A DNA stretch of 64,000 bases from Candidatus Omnitrophota bacterium. GTDB taxonomy: Bacteria > Omnitrophota > Gorgyraeia > 2-01-FULL-45-10. Location of the stretch: contig JBAZKH010000005.1 of assembly GCA_041650935.1 (NCBI GenBank), positions 65,574 to 129,573 on the forward strand, in the 5' to 3' direction. The translations under genes and the position numbers were made by a program. Below the pieces are notes generated by a model. It did not search any database, was not told where the DNA came from, and saw only the letters and a program-made list of their open reading frames with translations. Numbering within the stretch: the first letter of the stretch is position 1; each line of letters begins with the position of its first letter. This document shows positions 1 through 11,601 of this stretch, piece after piece.

Positions 1-1316
1 TCTCTGTAAGAATCGAGCTTTGCTATACCGTCGTCCAGTTTAAAGCTCAAGCCATAGATAGGAGCTTTTTTATTTATGAAGTCTGTGAATCTTTTTACAC
101 TAAAATTAGCTTTATTAGCTACATAGTAATCGAAATCTTCCTTGATTAAGGCTATATTGAACATGCCCTTAATAAGCGACAGGTCTTTGTCTAAAGAATA
201 GATGGTTTTTTGGTCATCCGTTTTGGCAAGATTTTCTACGAGGGTTGTTTCGAGTTTCGCTATTTCCTTATACAGGACGAGCTTGTCTATAGCATCATAT
301 TTTTTTACATATTCGGAGTATTTTACAAGGTTAGGCAGTTTGCTAAAATCTACTCCCGTAAAGCGTGCCTTCTTAAGCAGATAACTGTAAAATTCTTCAT
401 TTGTAATATCGCCCTGCTTGAACTGCACGCTCTTTACGACAAGCTCTTCCAAATCTTTCGTAGAGAGCTTTTGGTTAAGCTTATCGATGAGAATGCTGCG
501 TTCAGTGTCGGCATTTTTGAAATTTATGGATTTTTCATCATTTAGGATAGTAAGGAGGCTGGATAGGTTCGGGTAGGTATTAATGTCGACTTTTTGTAAC
601 TCCGCTTTCTCTTTCAAGAATGCGATATAGGCCTTAAAATCTATCTTGCTGTCTTTATACGCCTTTATCTTTTCGTCAACTTCTTTGAGTTCTGGGGAAT
701 ACGCTTTTAGCTTAAGGTTCGTTATCGCTAGAGATAGTGTATTGAGATATTTATCGACTTCCTCCTTATATATAAGAGAGGATCGATAGGCGTTTAAGTT
801 CTCCCCATAGAGTTTTTCATCTTCTATGCCGAAAAGTTTTACTTTATCCGGGTTATTTATAGCAAAGAATTCAGGTCCGGATATCCGCCCTTCCTTTACG
901 AAATAGTCGGAAACCTTTTTTCTTAATTCGGGGTCTTTAATTTTAGTAAATATGGAAAGATCGTAATTACCCTTACCGCCTTCCAGTGATACTAAACCTA
1001 TATTATAGGTAGATACGAGATGTTTTATAATGGCTTCTGAGGCATGCTGGGCTGAATAATTACAATGGGCGTCCTGAATGTGGATGATAGTCTTGCCGTT
1101 AGAACCTTTGAACGTGTCTTTTATCTCACCGAAACGAAAAGGTATTGAAATGCCATTTATATCTAAAGGAGCGGTGCTTATATTGCCAGCTGATACCGCT
1201 GGATTTGTAGCGTTAGCGCCCCACGCAAGATCGTAAAACACCATGTTAGAGAAAAAAGCACATAGAGTAACAAAAGATATCAGCACACGATATAGTCTTT
1301 TCTCTTTTATATGCAT
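1..1316 (-). CDS. Hypothetical secreted protein. The N-terminus is in the window and the C-terminus runs off the window start. Signal-peptide-like N-terminus MHIKEKRLYRVLISFVTLCAFFSNMVFYDLAWGA.
   Basis: The reverse strand is open from an ATG at 1316-1314 to position 1 with no stop. It is AT-rich with coherent codon usage. The N-terminus is basic then hydrophobic and ends in a DLAWG motif shared with the 1641-aa protein. The ORF is absent from the track only because it lacks an in-window stop. Confidence 0.5.
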   Translation of the reverse strand, partial: MHIKEKRLYRVLISFVTLCAFFSNMVFYDLAWGANATNPAVSAGNISTAPLDINGISIPFRFGEIKDTFKGSNGKTIIHIQDAHCNYSAQHASEAIIKHLVSTYNIGLVSLEGGKGNYDLSIFTKIKDPELRKKVSDYFVKEGRISGPEFFAINNPDKVKLFGIEDEKLYGENLNAYRSSLIYKEEVDKYLNTLSLAITNLKLKAYSPELKEVDEKIKAYKDSKIDFKAYIAFLKEKAELQKVDINTYPNLSSLLTILNDEKSINFKNADTERSILIDKLNQKLSTKDLEELVVKSVQFKQGDITNEEFYSYLLKKARFTGVDFSKLPNLVKYSEYVKKYDAIDKLVLYKEIAKLETTLVENLAKTDDQKTIYSLDKDLSLIKGMFNIALIKEDFDYYVANKANFSVKRFTDFINKKAPIYGLSFKLDDGIAKLDSYR

Positions 1317-2863: not shown

Positions 2864-4270
2864 TTAACCGTGGATCTCCCAATGCCCGCCTTTATCGGGA
2901 CCAATACGTTTAATAATGCCTTTTTCCTTTAGTTTTGACAAATGCTTTTCGATAGCTCTACTGGTTACGCCTAATAGCTGGGCAATCTGTTGCGCTGAGA
3001 TAGCGGGGTTTTCTTTAATTGCCGCAATAATCTTCTCCGAACTTTTCTCCGAACTTTTCTCCGAACTTATTTGAATTTGCTTATCCGGTTTGGGATTATG
3101 AAAAACTGTCACAAAACTGCCGCCAGCCTCTTCATAAGTTGGTTCGGGTAATCCCCACTCTTTGCACCACCGAATGATTTTACTTGTTCCTGAACCCACA
3201 TCCTCGGCGAATTTAATCCAGAAAAAGGCTTTGGCAATCAGAGGATTACGTGGAATCGAATCGTGCTTTCCTTTTAATTTTTCTATGGTAAGCGGCGGAG
3301 GTAAAAGTCCGGGATTCCAAACTTCCAGTCGATCGTCAAAAATCCTTACTTGGACTTTACCTGAACTGGCATAGTCTCGATGAGCCAAAGCGTTTGCCAG
3401 AGCTTCTCTTATGGCATCCTGTGGATAAAGCCATTTTTCCTGACGTTGGAGCTTCCCTGATTCTATCCATGCTTTCATTGGGATATGATCGTAGATAAAG
3501 CTTTCCGCTTTCTCAAGAAGCGTAATCGCGTCTCCGCCGATTGTTTTGAAATCAAGCATCGGTTTGGTTTCATCTACACCTTTGAACCGAATAGCTTTTA
3601 ATTCGGCTTGCAAAAAGAAGGATTGCGTGTCTTTTCCAAATAATAGAATGGCCGCATTGGTCAGCTTGCCGTTTTTTATTAACTTTAGCTTTCTCAAAAT
3701 ATCCGGCACCGGCGTCTCACGATCTATATTCAACCCTCTTTGTTCTTTGGCTTTTTTAACAAAGGTCAAAAGCTTTTCGTTACTGATATCTGTAATTTTT
3801 GCTTCCTTACAGATTTGTTCATCGAAATACAACCTGCCCTTATGCTTCTCAAGGATCAAACGCTCGTACTCATCCTTAGACATCTTAACCGTAGAGCGCC
3901 CCACGCGCTTATATGGCCGCCCAAAGGCAAGCACCAAATGATCGTGGGATTCTTTGACCTCGATAACGATCACGTCTTTATTGTCAATTTTCTTTACAAT
4001 TACATTGGGATGAAGCTTAGGGTCAGTATGCTGGGCTATTTGATTGACCAACTTCTCAATCGTACCTTTACCGATCTGAACACTATAAATCGTGCCTTCA
4101 GGGGAAACACCTATAAATAGCTGACCGCCTTCCGTATTCGCAAAAGCGGCTGCCGTCTCGATTATCTCATCGATCTCGGCTAAAGATTGTTTCCACTCAA
4201 TGATGGTGGATTCACCCATACCGATTATCTTTTTAATCTTCATACTCTTCTCCGAAGCAGAATATAGCAT
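2864..4270 (-). CDS. COG2865-type putative transcriptional regulator (Schlafen/AlbA_2 domain, HATPase_c_4 and C-terminal wHTH; RecG C-terminal-like).
   Basis: N-terminal AlbA_2-like stretch ESTIIEWKQSL. The conserved AIREALANALAHRDY motif and a C-terminal HTH (ISAQQIAQLLGVTSRAIEKHLSKLKEKGII) are also present. Confidence 0.8.
   Translation of the reverse strand: MLYSASEKSMKIKKIIGMGESTIIEWKQSLAEIDEIIETAAAFANTEGGQLFIGVSPEGTIYSVQIGKGTIEKLVNQIAQHTDPKLHPNVIVKKIDNKDVIVIEVKESHDHLVLAFGRPYKRVGRSTVKMSKDEYERLILEKHKGRLYFDEQICKEAKITDISNEKLLTFVKKAKEQRGLNIDRETPVPDILRKLKLIKNGKLTNAAILLFGKDTQSFFLQAELKAIRFKGVDETKPMLDFKTIGGDAITLLEKAESFIYDHIPMKAWIESGKLQRQEKWLYPQDAIREALANALAHRDYASSGKVQVRIFDDRLEVWNPGLLPPPLTIEKLKGKHDSIPRNPLIAKAFFWIKFAEDVGSGTSKIIRWCKEWGLPEPTYEEAGGSFVTVFHNPKPDKQIQISSEKSSEKSSEKIIAAIKENPAISAQQIAQLLGVTSRAIEKHLSKLKEKGIIKRIGPDKGGHWEIHG
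3040..3075. repeat. Three tandem copies of a 12-bp unit (cttttctccgaa) encoding SEKSSEKSSEK.
   Basis: Seen directly in the sequence, inside the COG2865 gene just before its HTH domain. Confidence 0.8.
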
Positions 4271-4315: not shown

Positions 4316-7300
4316 TTACGCGGCGGTTTTGATATACTTTCGTATGATATGATTCACTTCCATGACATGGGCATAATCGACCTGTCTAATCGGCGGTAGG
4401 ATAAAGGCTATCGTCATTACGAATTCACCGATATCGGCTATACGCAGTTCTTCATCGGTTAATTTCCTATTCGCCAAGGATTCAAAAGCACTCCGCAAGC
4501 TTGCAATGCTATTTGTATGAAGTGCCCTCATTGCTCGCATTATGCCTTCGACCTGAACGGGTTCTTTGCACCGCTCAAAAGCCATGGCCTTTATGTCTGC
4601 TCCTAACTCTTTTGCCAGGTTGCTACCAAGTATCGCCCTGACTTCATCTGTACTTGGACAGGCAACACCGAATTCGAATTTATAATTTTTAAAATCGTTG
4701 CCATACTCGGCACGATAATAATCTAGCGTCTTCTGCATCTTAATACGTACCTTGTCCACAAAATTGCCCGGGCCATCCCCTGCTAAACGAACTATCTTCT
4801 CGCTATAGTCTCTACGCCTCATGTCAAATTCGACATTTGTCAGGATTGGCCTTTGCGCTTCTGGTATTATAGAATCTGTAATAATATCGCAACGTATCGT
4901 GTTATTAGCAATGACAGGGGTATTTTGAAGATTCTCGGCATGAATCTTGTCCGCATCGGCCTTATCCAAATCGGAATCGGCTTCTTCTTGCGGTGATAAA
5001 GTCCTGGCGGCGAGCTTTTCCCGCAATTTCGCTATGCCTTCGCCTTGTGTGCTTTGACGAACAGGGGCTACATCGGCCTGTCCCGTTTGCTGCCGGGTCG
5101 AAGATGTGGCTTCACTTTTTGCCGGCGTACCGCTACTGGATAAGACTTCGCTTAAACCCAAGGGTTGGTCGGATATGGTTATGGTTTTAGACAGCACACT
5201 ATTCGAGTCACGCAACTTCTGTGCTAATTGCCGTAATGCCCGAGAAGATTCTTCTGGTTGAGGTATGGCTGCGCGTAATTCGAGGCGGTGGGCATAGGCC
5301 TCTCTTCTTTCCACAGAGCATTGTCTTAACTCATCATCTAAATAGCGTAAAAACCATTTATCATCTTTTGGCTGATAGATCGCTATGTCAGACCTGCGAG
5401 ATAATATTTCCAGTGCACGCCAAAATATAATCATATCTTTATTCCATTCGGGAAAATATTGATAGAGGTCCTCACAACCCTTTGTAGGAGAAAGAAAGGA
5501 TTCTCTTAAGTCGCGAACTGGTCTTTTATTTATACTGGTTATATCATGCATATATACATCTGCAAGTCGCAAAACTTCTTCTTCTGGCAAAGCATATACC
5601 TCGTCTATTTCCTCGGTTGATATACAATCTTCGCCGGACAGAAATTTCCTTAACCAAACCAAGTAATCTTGAAGTTCTTGGGGTTCCCATAAAAATCCTT
5701 CATAGTAACATTTCACCCATGACGCATTTAATATAGCTTCTGTTATCTTTTTGCGCTTTGCGGTCTCGTCCCTATTTGCCGCTGCGCCACCGGATGCGGA
5801 CGCAACCGCATTAAACTCTTTTAGTGCCTCGCCGCTCATTGCTTCGGTAACGGCACGGCAGATCTCGGCATGGTACGGCATTGCGGTAAGACTTGCTATA
5901 AATTCTTTAAGAGTATATACGCTGGCTTCTATGCTTCCTCTTGCCAATCCTGCGATACGAACTATTTCTGCCCGTTGTTCATCTTTTTCGAGTTTCGAGG
6001 CTTCCCGAATCAGATTCTGAATAATATCTATTGGATATCCGCCACCTAAATCTTTTGGCAACGGCTTTAGTTCTTTGCCTTCCGCAACTAACAAAACCGG
6101 AGCGGATTCAATCGTCCTTATGATATTATTGACATACATCTCTAGCCCCGTCAAAGATACTCCTTTTACCTGTCCTCTTCTTATCGCATAACCATAATTA
6201 GCCGCTATATGTGGAAACAAATTCATAAATTCGTAATCACATGAACCGACGGAGGTAACTCTTGACAGATTATTTTTTTCTAATGTGCCACTATAAGGCT
6301 TCGCTGTAAAGAAACAATAATAGGCGGGTTGCCCGAAACCAACATTTTGTAGCAATAAATCGATAGCGTATCTTTTAGTACCGGTTCCGATGTAATCGTC
6401 CACAACGATGAATTTCTTCGATTTAATCTCATTGAAAGTTCGATTGTCAAGGCCCATAACCTGCCGTAGTTTTTCATTTTGAGCTGATGCAGTCAAGCCT
6501 CCTCCTAGCAATGCTCTCTTGTCATCGTGATTAACAAGATAGATTAGCGGCATATTTTTGTTGCCATAAAGATGTTTCCATGCTGTTTCCAAAAGCATCG
6601 TTGGAAGCACTGCGCTGTCGCCAAAGAGTAAAATTGTACCGAACCCATTATCGTGAATCATTCTCGCAATTTCAATCGACACCGTAGCTATAGTTTCCGC
6701 CTCCCGCATGTCTTTGGTGATATTTTGCTGGACAAGCGGAGTGCCGGACTTACAGCGATTTATGTTAAAATCCCTGCTTTCCCAGTGGCCTGCTGTCCAG
6801 AAAAATGTGAAAACATTGACATCTTTCGGTAGGACGGCTTCATGGCGACCTGCTGTATTCTCGATTAACGGAATCATTCGACAATTATTCCAATGACCAA
6901 AATCGTCTTTTATACCTGCCCATACAAATCCCGGCGCCCCTTTAGATGGCTCTCCTACGGTCACCCGCACTCTATCTTCGGGGCCTATATCTAATACCTT
7001 CCCGCTTTCGAATGTCCAGACAACATCTTTTCCTTCGAGTTGAGGTTGGCTCTCCAATGGAGTACCTTTAAATTCAGGATGCTCGCGAAGCTTACCGGTT
7101 AAAAAGACTAAGTCGTTCAATAATATCGATGTACCACCATGCTTAGTATTAAAGATACGCTGCTCCTTTGATGGTTTGCTATAAAACCCTTCTGTCATAT
7201 TACCGGACATCATTAGCCCTATCTCACTGTTTGCAAGATCCCGTCCAGCATTTACCGCTATAGGTATGCCAGGCATTCCTATAACATTACCGTCATTAAG

Positions 7301-9241
7301 TCGTTCATCATATCTGTCACCATAGAATGCGACTAAGGAGACCTTTGAATTTAAATGCTCAGCCAACCACACTAACGCACTGCCTTTTGTTCCGTAATTA
7401 TCTTCATGTATCAGTCTGTAACCCCGGGTATCTTCATATTCATAAATGCGTTTCTCTTTGAAGAATTTATCCCGAGCAGCTAATATCAAATAGATATGGC
7501 TCAGCAAATATGATTTATGCAGTTTGTGAAGTTTATTGGCAAGATGATCGAGCGCCCTCCAGTAAAATGTCTCTTTTGTCGCGAGAGTATCGAAAGCAAT
7601 ATAACCGCCTTCTTCAAGATAAGCTATGATAGCGTTTACAATAGGCTCGTTTTCTTTATCACTCATTAAGCTTGTAATAGATATCGTCGTCTCATCCATA
7701 TCGAGTCCTAACAGCGGGGCACGCTTATCACGGCTTAGAATATGGTTGAGTCTCTCTTCAAGTACCTTTATCCTATCATCTTTAGTAGCGCCGCTGGATG
7801 CGGATGAACGAGTCGCTTGCTGCGCATTTAATTCGGCATAGCTTATAGGAGGTTTCGGAATAGGCAATGGATTTTCATCCGATGGCGTATCTTCAGGCTG
7901 GTCAGGCTTATAATTGTGCCGTCCAGACGGTGGCTCAGCACCGGGTAGTTTCGGACCGGGTAAACGTTTTGCGTGGGCTTCACCTCTCGCCATTACGCCT
8001 GGATTTTGCGATGCGACTGGGGCGGAGCTATTAGCTCCGGTAAATAATTCTCCATTCTCTGCTGTAGCGAGAAGTTTTTCATATCGATCTATTATTGGCT
8101 TAAATGTTACACCTTTATATCTATGTTTTATCTGTTCAAAATCCGCGCCTCTTCTGGATGCGATAATATCTTCCAAGCAACCTAAGTCTCTGGCAAATTT
8201 CAATTCTTCTTCGATTATTTCTAGGCACGCATGATGAAAGACATATTCAAATTTCAAATCACATATTTCATTGTCATAACATAACAATTCCAAAAATTCA
8301 TGCAATACACCGCAAATCATTTGCCTATTCCCTGTACGTTCTCTCAATAGAGTAAACGCAAGTGGTGAATATATAATATATACACCGGGTCCCCATATCC
8401 CTAACTTTTTTAAATCGTCTCTCGTTTGGCCATCAGAGATCCATTCATCGTATACTTTGCGCGGGATGTTAATTACTCCGTCTCCGATATTAAAATATTT
8501 ATTTGCGATACCTAATAGCTCATAGTCCGGAATTAAAACCGTGCCTTCCACTTTTAGTTCACTGGCCATATCTTCTAAAAATTCTATCGGGTCGCTAAGA
8601 TATATCGATTTTTTTGCATTCATTAATTTGTGATATGTGTTCCAAACAAGATCGCGGACTTTGGAAAACTTTTCCTTATAATCTTCCTCTGTTTGTGTTT
8701 TGTCAGGATTAACAAACCACACCCCTTCAAGTCCGGGGCACGAGAGATGGGCTATGTCTGCATCCGTTTTGATCTCAAAATTTCTTAGCTCTTCCAGATC
8801 CTGTGGAGTAAAATCAGCATAATCTCTGAGAAGTAACGCTTTTACCTGTTTGCCTTCCTTCTTAAAATTAAATGTGGCGATTGCCCATTTTTTCCCACTA
8901 GTTAAGCTACCTTTTTCAATACTTGCACCTATCTCAACTTCGCCAGCAGGAAAACATGTCTTATTCAATCTTGCAATTTGACCTTCTCTCACGTCTCCAG
9001 CTATGAATAGATTGCGCAATTCAACCGCCGCATAAGACGCAGTAAAGCCTGTACGGAAATCCATGCCCCACTTATCGAAGAATGGCTTGGATCTTAATTG
9101 TGCCGCAAGGGTAGTAGTGTTAGAAGAAGTGTAGCCGGAGGAAGGTTGTGCCCACGCAAGATCATTGACCAGAAATGTACACACTATGGCTATCGTTATA
9201 GCTTTAAATAATATGCTATATCTATTTTTATATACAAACAT
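4316..9241 (-). CDS. Giant (1641 aa) secreted multidomain protein with a HAD-like phosphatase module and a type I phosphoribosyltransferase-like module.
   Basis: N-terminal signal peptide. A Pro-rich linker precedes the HAD motif I LGLDMDETTI and motif IV-like FYGDRYDERLNDGNV. The PRPP-binding-loop-like FIVVDDYIGTGTKRY is present. It is a long uninterrupted ORF in AT-rich DNA. Confidence 0.8.
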   Translation of the reverse strand: MFVYKNRYSILFKAITIAIVCTFLVNDLAWAQPSSGYTSSNTTTLAAQLRSKPFFDKWGMDFRTGFTASYAAVELRNLFIAGDVREGQIARLNKTCFPAGEVEIGASIEKGSLTSGKKWAIATFNFKKEGKQVKALLLRDYADFTPQDLEELRNFEIKTDADIAHLSCPGLEGVWFVNPDKTQTEEDYKEKFSKVRDLVWNTYHKLMNAKKSIYLSDPIEFLEDMASELKVEGTVLIPDYELLGIANKYFNIGDGVINIPRKVYDEWISDGQTRDDLKKLGIWGPGVYIIYSPLAFTLLRERTGNRQMICGVLHEFLELLCYDNEICDLKFEYVFHHACLEIIEEELKFARDLGCLEDIIASRRGADFEQIKHRYKGVTFKPIIDRYEKLLATAENGELFTGANSSAPVASQNPGVMARGEAHAKRLPGPKLPGAEPPSGRHNYKPDQPEDTPSDENPLPIPKPPISYAELNAQQATRSSASSGATKDDRIKVLEERLNHILSRDKRAPLLGLDMDETTISITSLMSDKENEPIVNAIIAYLEEGGYIAFDTLATKETFYWRALDHLANKLHKLHKSYLLSHIYLILAARDKFFKEKRIYEYEDTRGYRLIHEDNYGTKGSALVWLAEHLNSKVSLVAFYGDRYDERLNDGNVIGMPGIPIAVNAGRDLANSEIGLMMSGNMTEGFYSKPSKEQRIFNTKHGGTSILLNDLVFLTGKLREHPEFKGTPLESQPQLEGKDVVWTFESGKVLDIGPEDRVRVTVGEPSKGAPGFVWAGIKDDFGHWNNCRMIPLIENTAGRHEAVLPKDVNVFTFFWTAGHWESRDFNINRCKSGTPLVQQNITKDMREAETIATVSIEIARMIHDNGFGTILLFGDSAVLPTMLLETAWKHLYGNKNMPLIYLVNHDDKRALLGGGLTASAQNEKLRQVMGLDNRTFNEIKSKKFIVVDDYIGTGTKRYAIDLLLQNVGFGQPAYYCFFTAKPYSGTLEKNNLSRVTSVGSCDYEFMNLFPHIAANYGYAIRRGQVKGVSLTGLEMYVNNIIRTIESAPVLLVAEGKELKPLPKDLGGGYPIDIIQNLIREASKLEKDEQRAEIVRIAGLARGSIEASVYTLKEFIASLTAMPYHAEICRAVTEAMSGEALKEFNAVASASGGAAANRDETAKRKKITEAILNASWVKCYYEGFLWEPQELQDYLVWLRKFLSGEDCISTEEIDEVYALPEEEVLRLADVYMHDITSINKRPVRDLRESFLSPTKGCEDLYQYFPEWNKDMIIFWRALEILSRRSDIAIYQPKDDKWFLRYLDDELRQCSVERREAYAHRLELRAAIPQPEESSRALRQLAQKLRDSNSVLSKTITISDQPLGLSEVLSSSGTPAKSEATSSTRQQTGQADVAPVRQSTQGEGIAKLREKLAARTLSPQEEADSDLDKADADKIHAENLQNTPVIANNTIRCDIITDSIIPEAQRPILTNVEFDMRRRDYSEKIVRLAGDGPGNFVDKVRIKMQKTLDYYRAEYGNDFKNYKFEFGVACPSTDEVRAILGSNLAKELGADIKAMAFERCKEPVQVEGIMRAMRALHTNSIASLRSAFESLANRKLTDEELRIADIGEFVMTIAFILPPIRQVDYAHVMEVNHIIRKYIKTAA

Positions 9242-9337
9242 GGTAGAAAATTATACCATGAAATATGTTAAGTCAATAGAAAGATATCTACATTTTTGAA
9301 TTCCTAATGCTTTTGAATTATTCACTTCATCAGTGCA

Positions 9338-9775
9338 CTATTTATATAGCGCTTCATAGATAAGCGCGTCATTTTCGTGGGCGGCTTCCACTTGATCAAG
9401 GCTTTGCTCTTGTCTTTCCCTGGCAAGTTCCTTCTTTAGATAATCAATAATGAATCCGTCTATTCTTTTCCATACATAAGAGCTAAAACGGACGGGCTTG
9501 GGGTTACCATGCTTGTCTTTATATCGGAGGTTATAGGTTTGAATCTTATCGTACAAGATAAATACCATCTGAGAGAGAATGTCTTCGCTGAAACGATCAC
9601 GATAAATCGGGAATATTATCTTGTGAATTCGAAAAAGGACAAATCCTATATGCCGCAGGATAAGCTCATTGGCCTTGCCTTTATCACCCTTTTTTGCCTG
9701 GGCAATGAGGCGTCTTTCTTCCTCAAGAGAAAGCTTTTGATATTTAGGGATAGCCGTACGATAGGTTTCGAACAT
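9338..9775 (-). CDS. Sigma-70 region-2-only protein (sigma-factor-like, lacking regions 3 and 4).
   Basis: LSLEEERRLIAQAKKGDKGKANELILRHIGFVLFRIHK matches sigma-70 regions 1.2/2.1-2.2. FSSYVWKRIDGFIIDYLKK matches region 2.4. The protein is only 145 aa. It lies immediately upstream of the giant gene on the same strand. Confidence 0.55.
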   Translation of the reverse strand: MFETYRTAIPKYQKLSLEEERRLIAQAKKGDKGKANELILRHIGFVLFRIHKIIFPIYRDRFSEDILSQMVFILYDKIQTYNLRYKDKHGNPKPVRFSSYVWKRIDGFIIDYLKKELARERQEQSLDQVEAAHENDALIYEALYK

Positions 9776-9857
9776 GGCGGTATATTATACAGGCCAAATA
9801 CTCGAAACCAAATTAAAAATAATGAGATTCTTTGCTTGAAGACGGGCAATAAATTTT

Positions 9858-9903
9858 GGCGGCAAAAAAGAGGCATCGGTTATATGCTAACCAATGCCTC
9901 TTT
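9858..9903 (-). terminator. Rho-independent terminator-like hairpin plus T-run, downstream of tRNA-Tyr.
   Basis: On the minus strand, aaaagaggcattggttagcatataaccgatgcctctttt is followed by ttttttgcc. The stem is about 14 bp with one mismatch. Confidence 0.5.
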
Positions 9904-9962
9904 TGACTTCTTAGCAACCCTCTTACTTAGGTCTAAAACCACTATTTCGCACAAGTCTTTGA
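9866..9962. repeat. Direct-repeat copy 2 (partner of 1576-1669).
   Basis: Manual alignment. It lies immediately 3' of tRNA-Tyr. Confidence 0.7.
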
Positions 9963-9994
9963 TGTCACAATAATTAAAAATACTTGAGTAAAGT

Positions 9995-10080
9995 TGGTGG
10001 TGAGGGATGGATTCGAACCATCGAAGGCTTGCGCCGCCAGATTTACAGTCTGGTCCATTTGGCCGCTATGGTACCTCACC
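9995..10080 (-). tRNA. tRNA-Tyr (anticodon GTA), type II with a long variable arm.
   Basis: Reverse complement is GGTGAGGTACCATAGCGGCCAAATGGACCAGACTGTAAATCTGGCGGCGCAAGCCTTCGATGGTTCGAATCCATCCCTCACCACCA. Acceptor stem is GGTGAGG/CCTCACC. The anticodon loop is CTGTAAA. The T-loop is GGTTCGAATCC and CCA is encoded. Confidence 0.9.
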
Positions 10081-10360: not shown

Positions 10361-10705
10361 CTATGCAAATTGAACGCGCCTTTTGGGATGAATCAAGCGC
10401 TCAAGCCTGTGCCTAATAGTACTGTTAAGAGGAATGGCTTGCATTTTAACCGTATAGCCGATAAAAAGCAATACCTTTTCGAGGGTAGAAATACTGCTGA
10501 ATTCACCGTTTTCAATCTTCGAAATATGCTGCTGGGTTACCCCCACCTTATCGGCTAACTGTTTCTGGCTGAGTTTATTTTTAACCCGATATTCGATAAT
10601 CCGTTTTACGATCTTGAGTTTTTGTTCCTCAAGCTCATAAAGCTCCTTAAAATAAGGGTCTTTCAACTTTTCTTTTAAGTGCTCATCTACTTTTTGTAGT
10701 TTCAT
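10361..10705 (-). CDS. higA: XRE-family HTH antitoxin (HigA-like).
   Basis: HTH motif LSQKQLADKVGVTQQHISKIENGE. It lies directly downstream of a HigB/Gp49-like toxin gene. Confidence 0.7.
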   Translation of the reverse strand: MKLQKVDEHLKEKLKDPYFKELYELEEQKLKIVKRIIEYRVKNKLSQKQLADKVGVTQQHISKIENGEFSSISTLEKVLLFIGYTVKMQAIPLNSTIRHRLERLIHPKRRVQFA

Positions 10706-10719
10706 ATTAATCGTCTCCC

Positions 10720-11085
10720 TTATTGTCTACTTAAAAAATCGTTCCTTCTTTCGATGGCTATAATTATCTCATTTTTAGGAGTTTTCCGCGCCTTTTTTAT
10801 AAAGCCATTGGTAAATACTGCTTTATCTTCATGATAAAAGAAATACAAAACCCTGACCGCTCCTTCATGTCCTTTGAATCTCAACTCAAAGATGCTATCC
10901 CCAATATATTTGGCATGAGGAAATGGCAATCTATGACCAAATTCCTCCAATAATTCCTTAACAAAGAAAAACTTTCTTTGTGATTTAAAATCCAATGAAT
11001 CAACAAATTCTTTTACAGGCGATTTGCCTGATTCTGTAAGGTAATAATAAGTCGCTATTTTAGCCACTAACTCCGTACCCCTCAA
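10720..11085 (-). CDS. higB: RelE/ParE-superfamily toxin, HigB/Gp49-like (PF05973-type).
   Basis: IFELRFKGHEGAVRVLYFFYHEDKAVFTNGFIKKARKTPKNEIIIAIERR is typical of Gp49-like HigB toxins. Toxin-first order with an XRE antitoxin following. Confidence 0.7.
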   Translation of the reverse strand: MRGTELVAKIATYYYLTESGKSPVKEFVDSLDFKSQRKFFFVKELLEEFGHRLPFPHAKYIGDSIFELRFKGHEGAVRVLYFFYHEDKAVFTNGFIKKARKTPKNEIIIAIERRNDFLSRQ

Positions 11086-11525: not shown

Positions 11526-11601
11526 TGGAGCTGGGGAGAGGACTTGAACCTCCAACAGCGTGCTTACAAAGCACGAACTCTACCAGTTGAGTTACCCCAG
11601 C
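11526..11601 (-). tRNA. tRNA-Thr (anticodon TGT), intact.
   Basis: Reverse complement is GCTGGGGTAACTCAACTGGTAGAGTTCGTGCTTTGTAAGCACGCTGTTGGAGGTTCAAGTCCTCTCCCCAGCTCCA. Acceptor stem is GCTGGGG/CCCCAGC. Anticodon stem is CGTGC/GCACG with loop TTTGTAA. Confidence 0.85.

Follow-up and report, generated by a model that had tools for sequence, protein, structure and literature searches.

We describe SIG, a protein of 145 amino acids (aa) that is very probably a functional stand-alone form of domain 2 of bacterial sigma factors (sigma-2), encoded in a 64,000-nucleotide stretch of the genome of a Candidatus Omnitrophota bacterium (assembly GCA_041650935.1, contig JBAZKH010000005.1, positions 65,574 to 129,573; hereafter, the window). 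SIG is a working name. Its open reading frame (ORF), delimited from the ORF list, sigma profiles and an AlphaFold model, runs from ATG to stop at positions 9338..9775 of the minus strand, between the gene for tRNA-Tyr (9995-10080, minus) and an ORF of 1641 aa (4316..9241, minus), hereafter the giant gene. A database entry identical to SIG (P0001) is annotated as a hypothetical protein of Omnitrophota. W designates the window's own locus, L001-L088 are locus labels, and P0001 and similar codes are protein labels.

Sigma-2 identity and family of SIG

The original prediction, made from the sequence, had aligned SIG by eye to sigma-70 regions 1.2 to 2.4. The four peptides that it quoted (EEERRLIAQAKKGD, ANELILRHIGFVLFRIHK, DILSQMVFILYDKIQ and FSSYVWKRIDGFIIDYLKK) are all present in the SIG translation, and the likeness to the sigma-70 family holds over residues 2-127 in PHROG and NCBIfam profiles, hhalign comparisons and the AlphaFold model. 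PHROG 351, annotated as 'RNA polymerase sigma factor', matches residues 7-114 with E=1e-8. Fifteen sigma models of NCBIfam also match SIG, including SigI (3.5e-6) and FliA/WhiG (3.5e-5); these matches are confined to the N-terminal half of each model and their scores are far under the family cut-offs. The SIG family profile is aligned by hhalign to RpoH 16-63 (regions 1.2-2.1, E=1.5e-4) and to FliA 42-84 (regions 2.2-2.4), while a PDB sequence-profile search with SIG returns RpoH only (17-63, E=0.16). The prediction had held that the lack of a significant Sigma70_r2 hit would speak against a sigma-2 identity. This Pfam profile (PF04542) gives E=0.091 and 13.0 bits for a gathering cut-off of 24, with only residues 92-116 aligned, and would count against the assignment if taken alone. 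We nevertheless consider the assignment confirmed because several independent profile and structure lines agree despite the Sigma70_r2 miss.

The structural line comes from an AlphaFold2 model built from 24 homologues, with a mean pLDDT of 83.7 and values above 90 over residues 21-120. Its best PDB matches in Foldseek are to region 2 of E. coli sigma-E (probability 1.00, TM 0.76-0.80 normalised on the target), with sigma-32, sigma-S and sigma-A among the further top fold matches. The best viral fold matches, in BFVD, are phage sigma factors.

A word-indexed search retrieved at least 526 SIG homologues of about 130-160 aa from metagenomes and from metagenome-assembled genomes (MAGs) mostly labelled Omnitrophota. 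The best 120 of the 526 are 119-169 aa long and 62-100% identical. Some are named 'DNA-directed RNA polymerase specialized sigma subunit' by the JGI pipeline, and NCBI names them hypothetical. An exhaustive profile search, run against 1.84 billion cluster representatives, gave 159 matches, nearly all of 200 aa or less and many of them fragments at contig ends. The only full-length sigma factors among the 159 are three distant proteins, P0249, P0251 and P0261 (E of about 1e-7 to 4e-6), which are RpoS/RpoD/FliA-like by NCBIfam; no close relative of SIG with regions 3-4 was found among the 1.84 billion representatives. Pairwise dN/dS between SIG and the closest loci is 0.09-0.16, and SIG is under strong purifying selection. 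Several assemblies carry two to three SIG copies, which belong to different clades of the family tree.

SIG ends after the region 2.4 helix with an 18-residue tail, so that regions 3 and 4 are absent as had been predicted. The 96 nt between its stop codon and the next gene are too short for remnants of regions 3/4, and a home-made sigma-4 hidden Markov model (HMM), of limited sensitivity since it was built from 7 sequences, detected no signal in the six frames of the 64-kb window. It is extremely unlikely that SIG is a pseudogene left by truncation, or that it is the first half of a sigma gene split by an inserted element, as in sigK/skin. Such an origin would fit the mobile-element genes, large serine recombinases included, that adjoin several SIG copies, and the fall of conservation past about residue 127. 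It was rejected on the similar length of about 130-160 aa across the family, the strong purifying selection, the exhaustive search and the absence of any region 3/4 coding remnant in the window or near other copies; such downstream remnants were what the original prediction had named as the mark of a 3'-truncated gene. The lack of a close relative with regions 3-4 rules out recurrent truncation or a sigK/skin-type interruption. One locus (L018) has a broken SIG copy (P0148, 12600-13274), 2.2 kb downstream of an intact one, in which the first 75 SIG residues are joined in frame to AlbA_2/HATPase_c_4-like sequence.

The SIG family is absent from IMG/VR, from the INPHARED phages and from the PLSDB plasmids, and a phage or plasmid origin was rejected on these grounds; a terminase is found nearby in one locus (L006). 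The possibility that SIG is a known defence component was likewise rejected, with no match in PADLOC. Literature searches returned no description of the family. A survey of Omnitrophota treats giant ORFs and not the SIG protein (PMC10066038).

Conserved anatomy of SIG

SIG was aligned with E. coli RpoD, RpoH, FliA and RpoE and with the three distant full-length relatives, and column conservation was computed over 126 members of the family. From residue 12 to residue 127, dozens of columns are near-invariant. The model has helices at residues 2-11, 17-28, 32-53, 56-80, 97-127 and 136-144. The first three cover regions 1.2 and 2.1 (residues 2-53; 9617..9772, minus strand as for all SIG segments), according to the alignment, the hhalign match to RpoH 16-63 and the PDB profile match to RpoH 17-63. 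The region 2.2-like helix follows (residues 56-82; 9530..9610). Defined by alignment and conservation, it is expected to contact core RNA polymerase (RNAP) at the beta-prime clamp helices, a role deduced from sigma-70 and T4 gp55 (PMC7892883). Its conserved acidic residues are E64, D65, which is aligned to sigma-70 D403, Q/E69 and D76; E64, D65 and D76 are near-invariant.

Regions 2.2 and 2.3 are separated by a family-specific beta-hairpin insertion, LRYKDKxGNxKPV (residues 83-95; 9491..9529), with modelled strands at 84-86 and 92-94. Positions L83, Y85, D87, G90, P94 and V95 are nearly invariant over the 126 members. The insertion faces an alignment gap in RpoD, RpoH, FliA and RpoE and is thus absent from the E. 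coli sigmas, while an insertion is found at this point in two of the three distant full-length relatives. The hairpin's position is that of the sigma-E specificity loop; in sigma-E/-10 structures, which were the top fold matches, this loop makes the pocket that receives the flipped -10 base.

Regions 2.3-2.4 lie on a single long helix (RFSSYVWKRIDGFIIDYLKKE...; residues 96-127; 9395..9490), as given by the hhalign match to FliA 42-84, the alignment and the model helix 97-127. In sigma-70, the region 2.3/2.4 residues F419, F427, Y430, W433/W434 and Q437 melt and read the -10 element. Y81, F97 and Y100 of SIG are conserved at the positions of F419, F427 and Y430, and the overall pattern is FliA-like. 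The near-invariant S99, W102, K103, R104, D106 and G107 align to sigma-70 T429, T432, W433, W434, R436 and Q437; the W433/W434 positions hold K103/R104, with the invariant W102 adjoining.

The last 18 residues form a low-confidence loop and a short helix in the model. A conserved C-terminal motif (residues 125-132; 9380..9403) leads into this tail, where pLDDT is below 60 past residue 127, and is a candidate partner-binding motif. Its consensus is S-[LP]-D-W-[EG]-R-[YF]-D, and it reads SLDQVEAA in the SIG of the window. The motif is essentially SIG-specific among the ORFs of the loci; the looser core DW[EG]R[YF] is found also in one unrelated ORF of 355 aa.

Possible roles of SIG

To our knowledge, natural proteins made of sigma-2 only are very rare, being T4 gp55 with its phage relatives and the tiny RsoA of Bacillus. 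The closest known proteins to SIG are gp55 by its function-like architecture, the N-terminal half of group-3 sigmas (FliA/WhiG/SigI) by sequence, and RsoA by concept in cellular genomes. Gp55 has a sigma-R2-like domain whose acidic helix binds the beta-prime clamp helices, reads a -10-like element without contacting the -35, and ends with an over-long last helix in a helix-loop-helix followed by a flexible C-terminal motif tethering it to the sliding clamp (PMC7892883). SIG is similarly sigma-2-only, with helix 97-127 followed by a short helix, acidic region 2.2 residues and a conserved motif in a disordered tail. It differs from gp55 by the lack of a gp55-type Pfam or PHROG match, by its clear region 1.2 and beta-hairpin insertion, and by being encoded in Omnitrophota MAGs and not in known phages. 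The SIG tail motif is presumably unlike clamp-binding motifs, and a neighbour census (87 loci fetched, ORFs called and about 1,200 neighbour ORFs within 8 kb clustered) gave no recurrent candidate for a gp33- or gp45-like partner. Group-3 sigmas (FliA/WhiG, SigF/G and the SigI N-terminal half) give the best sequence-profile matches, and the SIG 2.3-2.4 motif FSSYxWKRIDGFIIDYLKKE parallels FliA FTTYAVQRIRGAMLDELR; unlike them, SIG has neither regions 3-4 nor a QEGNIGL-type motif, and it scores far under their cut-offs. RsoA, of about 79 aa, is smaller and co-operonic with SigO, whereas SIG has 145 aa, spans regions 1.2-2.4 and has no sigma-4 gene nearby. The two are alike in that RsoA, a 9 kDa protein (PMC10141391), is a stand-alone sigma-2-type polypeptide of a cellular genome (PMC8103513). 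Sigma-family proteins are also found in defence loci, as MzaA of the MZA system and the RpoE-like sigma of type III-E CRISPR, both with NCBIfam models; SIG weakly matches the type III-E CRISPR-associated sigma model (E=0.019). These proteins are full-length with region 4 and belong to defined multi-gene systems, while SIG has no fixed system.

We tentatively favour the reading that SIG is an RNAP-binding, gp55-like and -35-independent specificity subunit for accessory genes, or at least a competitor for the sigma site. This reading is put forward because SIG has the same parts: an acidic region 2.2 helix, a melting helix with invariant aromatic and basic residues, a long last helix, a tail motif and the hairpin. 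In sigma-70, the beta-prime clamp helices are the docking site of the region 2.2-type helix, through its acidic residues, and the 2.3/2.4 helix captures flipped -10 bases. The SIG region 2.2 helix would dock on the same clamp helices of core RNAP, as in sigma-2 domains and T4 gp55, and the 2.3/2.4 helix together with the hairpin would read a -10-like element on the non-template strand. SIG would act without -35 contact on accessory or island promoters, probably assisted by a partner bound to the C-terminal motif. At minimum, it would compete for the sigma site on core RNAP. A bolder version, unlikely in its entirety, is that SIG represents an Omnitrophota half-sigma family of gp55-like proteins, with the hairpin as specificity loop and the C-terminus as tether to a co-factor, providing a private -35-independent channel for islands (SoFic, giant surface-protein genes and integrative elements). 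If true, -35-independent half-sigma control would be more than a phage curiosity. It would extend to a phylum without cultivated members, noted for its giant genes and for lifestyles that depend on a host, and would work through an insertion specific to the family, at the place of the -10 specificity loop, and a putative tether motif of its own. It would also open a way to study how flexible-genome islands and SoFic-type defence genes are connected to the host RNAP. The more modest readings, as RNAP competitor or Fic partner, would still mean a new use of the sigma-2 fold.

Several observations weigh against the specificity subunit. The SIG score with Sigma70_r2 is under threshold, the canonical core-binding QEGNIGL is replaced in the SIG family by SQ(A/M)(I/V)FIL, and a gp55 homologue comes only 20th among the BFVD fold matches with a Foldseek probability of 0.44. 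The promoters of SIG and of the giant gene resemble ordinary housekeeping-type -10 promoters, and no candidate target promoter motif was identified for SIG. Absence from IMG/VR, INPHARED and PLSDB leaves a phage-style takeover role without direct support. Lastly, a tight and order-independent link to Fic genes, detailed below, hints at a different, protein-level role.

SIG could instead be a competitive decoy or anti-sigma-like modulator, as the original prediction already proposed, that occupies the sigma-2 site or soaks up a sigma-binding protein without directing initiation. Expressed from islands, it would damp host or invader transcription. PhyR has a sigma-like domain serving as protein decoy and not for initiation (PMC8103513); in PhyR, sigma-2- and sigma-4-like parts with degenerate DNA and core contacts are fused to a receiver domain, unlike SIG, which is sigma-2 only with conserved DNA-face residues. 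A decoy role is in keeping with the lack of regions 3.2 and 4, used in normal initiation, with a strong, probably constitutive own promoter and with the location in defence and mobile-element regions. We regard it as somewhat unlikely, considering that the DNA-melting face (Y81, F97, Y100, W102, R104, G107) varies as little as the putative core-binding face does. This conserved putative DNA face speaks against a pure core-blocking decoy, which would need the core-binding face only, and the several diverged paralogues per genome fit specificity better than bulk competition. A rather improbable arrangement is a two-subunit sigma of the kind formed by SigO and RsoA, with SIG as one subunit and a separately encoded region-4 protein for reading the -35 element. 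There is the precedent of B. subtilis, in which RsoA and SigO divide the sigma-2 and sigma-4 functions between them (PMC8103513), and the conserved C-terminal motif could hold the partner. The search for such a separately encoded partner, suggested by the original prediction, came out negative: no sigma-4 gene lies consistently near SIG copies in the 88 loci and none is present in the window. The 7-sequence HMM, within its limited sensitivity, found four sigma-4 proteins in the 88 loci (one RpoD-size, two ECF-size and one marginal), none of them adjacent to SIG. The neighbour census showed no recurrent helix-turn-helix (HTH) partner, and SIG has no constant neighbour whereas RsoA and SigO are co-operonic. 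The HTH_3 protein of the window gives a weak Sigma70_r4 match (E=1.8e-4) and was rejected as a sigma-4 partner, the match being an HTH cross-match. In three loci, an operon upstream of SIG carries a DUF134 gene with genes for a methyltransferase, a NifB/NifX-like protein and a 4Fe-4S ferredoxin, and ends 30-36 nt (L047, L065) or about 220 nt (L073) before SIG. The DUF134 protein (98 aa) is possibly a sigma-4-like HTH protein, which would favour the two-subunit arrangement. A partner could possibly be encoded elsewhere in the genome.

Only Fic genes recur beside SIG. A Pfam census of 115 genes downstream of SIG gave 143 families and no constant neighbour and, together with the clustering of the roughly 1,200 ORFs, led us to reject a conserved operon partner. 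Fic genes occupy 13 of the 136 slots directly beside SIG versus 4 of 725 other slots (odds ratio 19, p=3e-8); they are found in L001, L027, L037, L045, L048, L051, L054, L058, L060, L070, L073 and L077, at about position 10000 in each. The adjacent Fic proteins have about 350-400 aa, nearly all with an intact HPFxDGNGR, and all carry the internal inhibitory motif [ST]xxxE[GN]. The five representatives tested match the PADLOC SoFic model over its whole length, the best E being 1e-120. Fic may precede SIG with gaps of 6-20 nt, follow it with an 8-nt overlap or 4-nt gaps, or be convergent to it with the 3' ends touching. SIG might be a partner of these SoFic-type toxins, as regulator, antitoxin-like neutraliser or infection sensor, its fold serving as a binding module and not as an RNAP subunit. 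This adjacency in both orders and in convergent pairs, often with overlaps or distances of 4-20 nt, speaks for a partnership, as do the scattering of Fic-adjacent copies over the SIG tree and the precedent of AS1, a small antitoxin of 47 aa adjacent to E. coli SoFic (PMC12249575). It is very doubtful, however, given that about 80% of the SIG genes, including that of the window, have no Fic gene nearby, that the Fic proteins possess their own inhibitory motif, that AS1 is an unrelated protein, and that the variable orientation is at odds with an obligate two-gene operon.

The SIG locus and its genomic setting

The SIG promoter block (9776..9820, minus), defined by upstream alignment of 10 loci, comprises TTTGGTTTC (9804-9812) and the -10 hexamer TGTATAAT (9784-9789), followed by 8 nt and the ATG. 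The ten closest loci have a sharp onset of homology about 50 nt before the SIG ATG and share the arrangement TTTGGTTTC-N14-TGTATAAT-N8-ATG. No Shine-Dalgarno sequence precedes SIG, which therefore looks leaderless. Starts of the type TATAAT-N7/8-ATG without Shine-Dalgarno sequence are found at 9241, 9775 and 43951 (minus), suggesting leaderless mRNAs; a Shine-Dalgarno-like sequence is present in about 58% of the other genes of the window. Antisense to SIG lies a 154-aa ORF (9509-9973, plus), longer than SIG, that is almost certainly a shadow ORF which greedy ORF callers would choose over SIG.

The giant gene (4316..9241, minus) codes for a 1641-aa protein with a signal-peptide-like N-terminus and no Pfam domain above cut-off. 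Its start is promoter-like, with TTGACT...TGGTATAAT-N8-ATG: pattern search and flank comparison delimit a region (9242..9286, minus) with TTGACT (9271-9276), 15 nt ending in TGG, TATAAT (9250-9255), 8 nt and the ATG. This promoter is kept downstream of SIG in L005 and L014. No terminator is evident between SIG and the giant gene, and read-through is possible; each gene has its own start signals. Residues 921-968 of the giant protein form a weak PRTase/ShosT-like stretch. A second giant gene, of 2434 aa, is found at about 1-1316 (minus), runs off the window and continues in L088 (11136-18440). Both giants have signal-peptide-like N-termini ending in DLAW(A/G), and the second also lacks Pfam domains above cut-off. 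The two proteins are unrelated by blastp.

The tRNA-Tyr(GTA) gene directly upstream of SIG (9995..10080, minus; ARAGORN) is followed by an inverted repeat, a hairpin and then a T-run (9866..9904, minus; repeat search), which is probably its terminator and lies between the tRNA and SIG. The 127 nt past the tRNA, with this terminator-like hairpin, are repeated in the window at 81-87% identity (81% over a 154-nt alignment including the tRNA 3' end, and 87% over 112 nt, 1575-1686 versus 9868-9979), and the -35 box of the giant promoter, TTGACTTAACATA (9264-9297), recurs at 1509-1542. This second copy of the tRNA-Tyr flank (1509-1728) lies upstream of the second giant gene and has no SIG; the hairpin is separated from the promoter box by 33 nt there versus 570 nt in the first copy. 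Direct repeats and pairwise alignment define a SIG cassette of about 570 bp (9297..9867, minus) that extends from the tRNA-Tyr terminator hairpin to the -35 box of the giant promoter. As the interval 9297-9867 is exactly SIG and its promoter, SIG is a discrete insertion or deletion in a repeated island end and not an integral part of a giant-gene operon. No terminal repeats, which would be a sign of autonomous mobility, were found around the cassette. Homology between SIG loci sets in about 50 nt upstream of the ATG and dwindles past codon 127.

The operon with the giant gene that the original prediction had proposed holds locally, SIG being directly upstream on the same strand, and does not extend further, given the separate promoters, the SIG-less flank copy and the restriction of the SIG-then-giant order to three (W, L005 and L014) of some 70 independent loci. 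Homologues of the 1641-aa giant were found only in L005 among the loci, and a family-wide link between SIG and giants was rejected on this and on the unrelated second giant. The giant gene is a local neighbour of SIG and not the conserved target of the family. A dedicated role of SIG in regulating the downstream secreted giant, as an operon-specific initiation or elongation factor, is highly unlikely. It would account for the order of SIG, promoter and giant gene in W, L005 and L014, which have a common TTGACTTAA...TGGTAnnAT promoter, and the sigma-2 domain of sigma-70 can re-bind elongating RNAP at -10-like sequences. It has against it, besides the rarity of this order, that the giant promoter resembles a standard extended -10 type and that the second giant retains the shared -35 box, about 190 nt before its start, in the absence of SIG.

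Across the loci, the SIG family is found in flexible parts of the genome, in tRNA-linked islands and near recombinases, toxin-antitoxin genes and defence genes. Recurrent neighbours are tyrosine integrases, large serine recombinases, an rve-type IS transposase and an HTH_17 excisionase-like protein (Xis), as well as Replic_Relax, HEPN/nucleotidyltransferase, AbiE, RelE, metal-resistance and regulator genes. A tRNA gene is found just upstream of SIG in other loci too: tRNA-His in L010, L037, L044 and L063, tRNA-Thr in L005 and tRNA-Ala in L060. SIG is a practical marker for flexible regions of Omnitrophota genomes. The rve-type transposase gene is divergent and just upstream of SIG in L037 (8836-9936), L044 (4640-5710), L073 (8841-9911) and L064 (1-478), with tRNA-His on its other side in L037 and L044. 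Six loci have about 100 nt of common upstream sequence.

The G+C content is 37-45% from position 1 to about 11,500 of the window versus more than 50% in the remainder. This low-GC block, which lies downstream of tRNA-Thr (11526-11601) and tRNA-Tyr, looks like a composite genomic island. No integrase was found in the stretch examined, which comprised the window together with the adjoining 8 kb on the side of position 1 (L088). The 3' end of tRNA-Tyr (9995-10020) recurs in degenerate form at 1703-1728, 2561-2578 and 2752-2778, repeats that look like att remnants of tandem islets; one islet of 858 bp contains only a two-gene toxin-antitoxin-like pair. The low-GC block includes, all on the minus strand, a toxin-antitoxin-like pair of Gp49 (HigB-like) and HTH_3 antitoxin genes between the two tRNAs (10361-10705 and 10720-11085) and an overlapping pair of 113-aa and 98-aa toxin-antitoxin-like genes without Pfam match (1817-2113 and 2110-2451). 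A 468-aa protein with AlbA_2/Schlafen, HATPase_c_4 and winged-helix domains is encoded at 2864-4270 (minus). It matches the PADLOC 'pAgo' model (9e-18), probably through a shared Schlafen-type domain, and is possibly a defence-island regulator or sensor.

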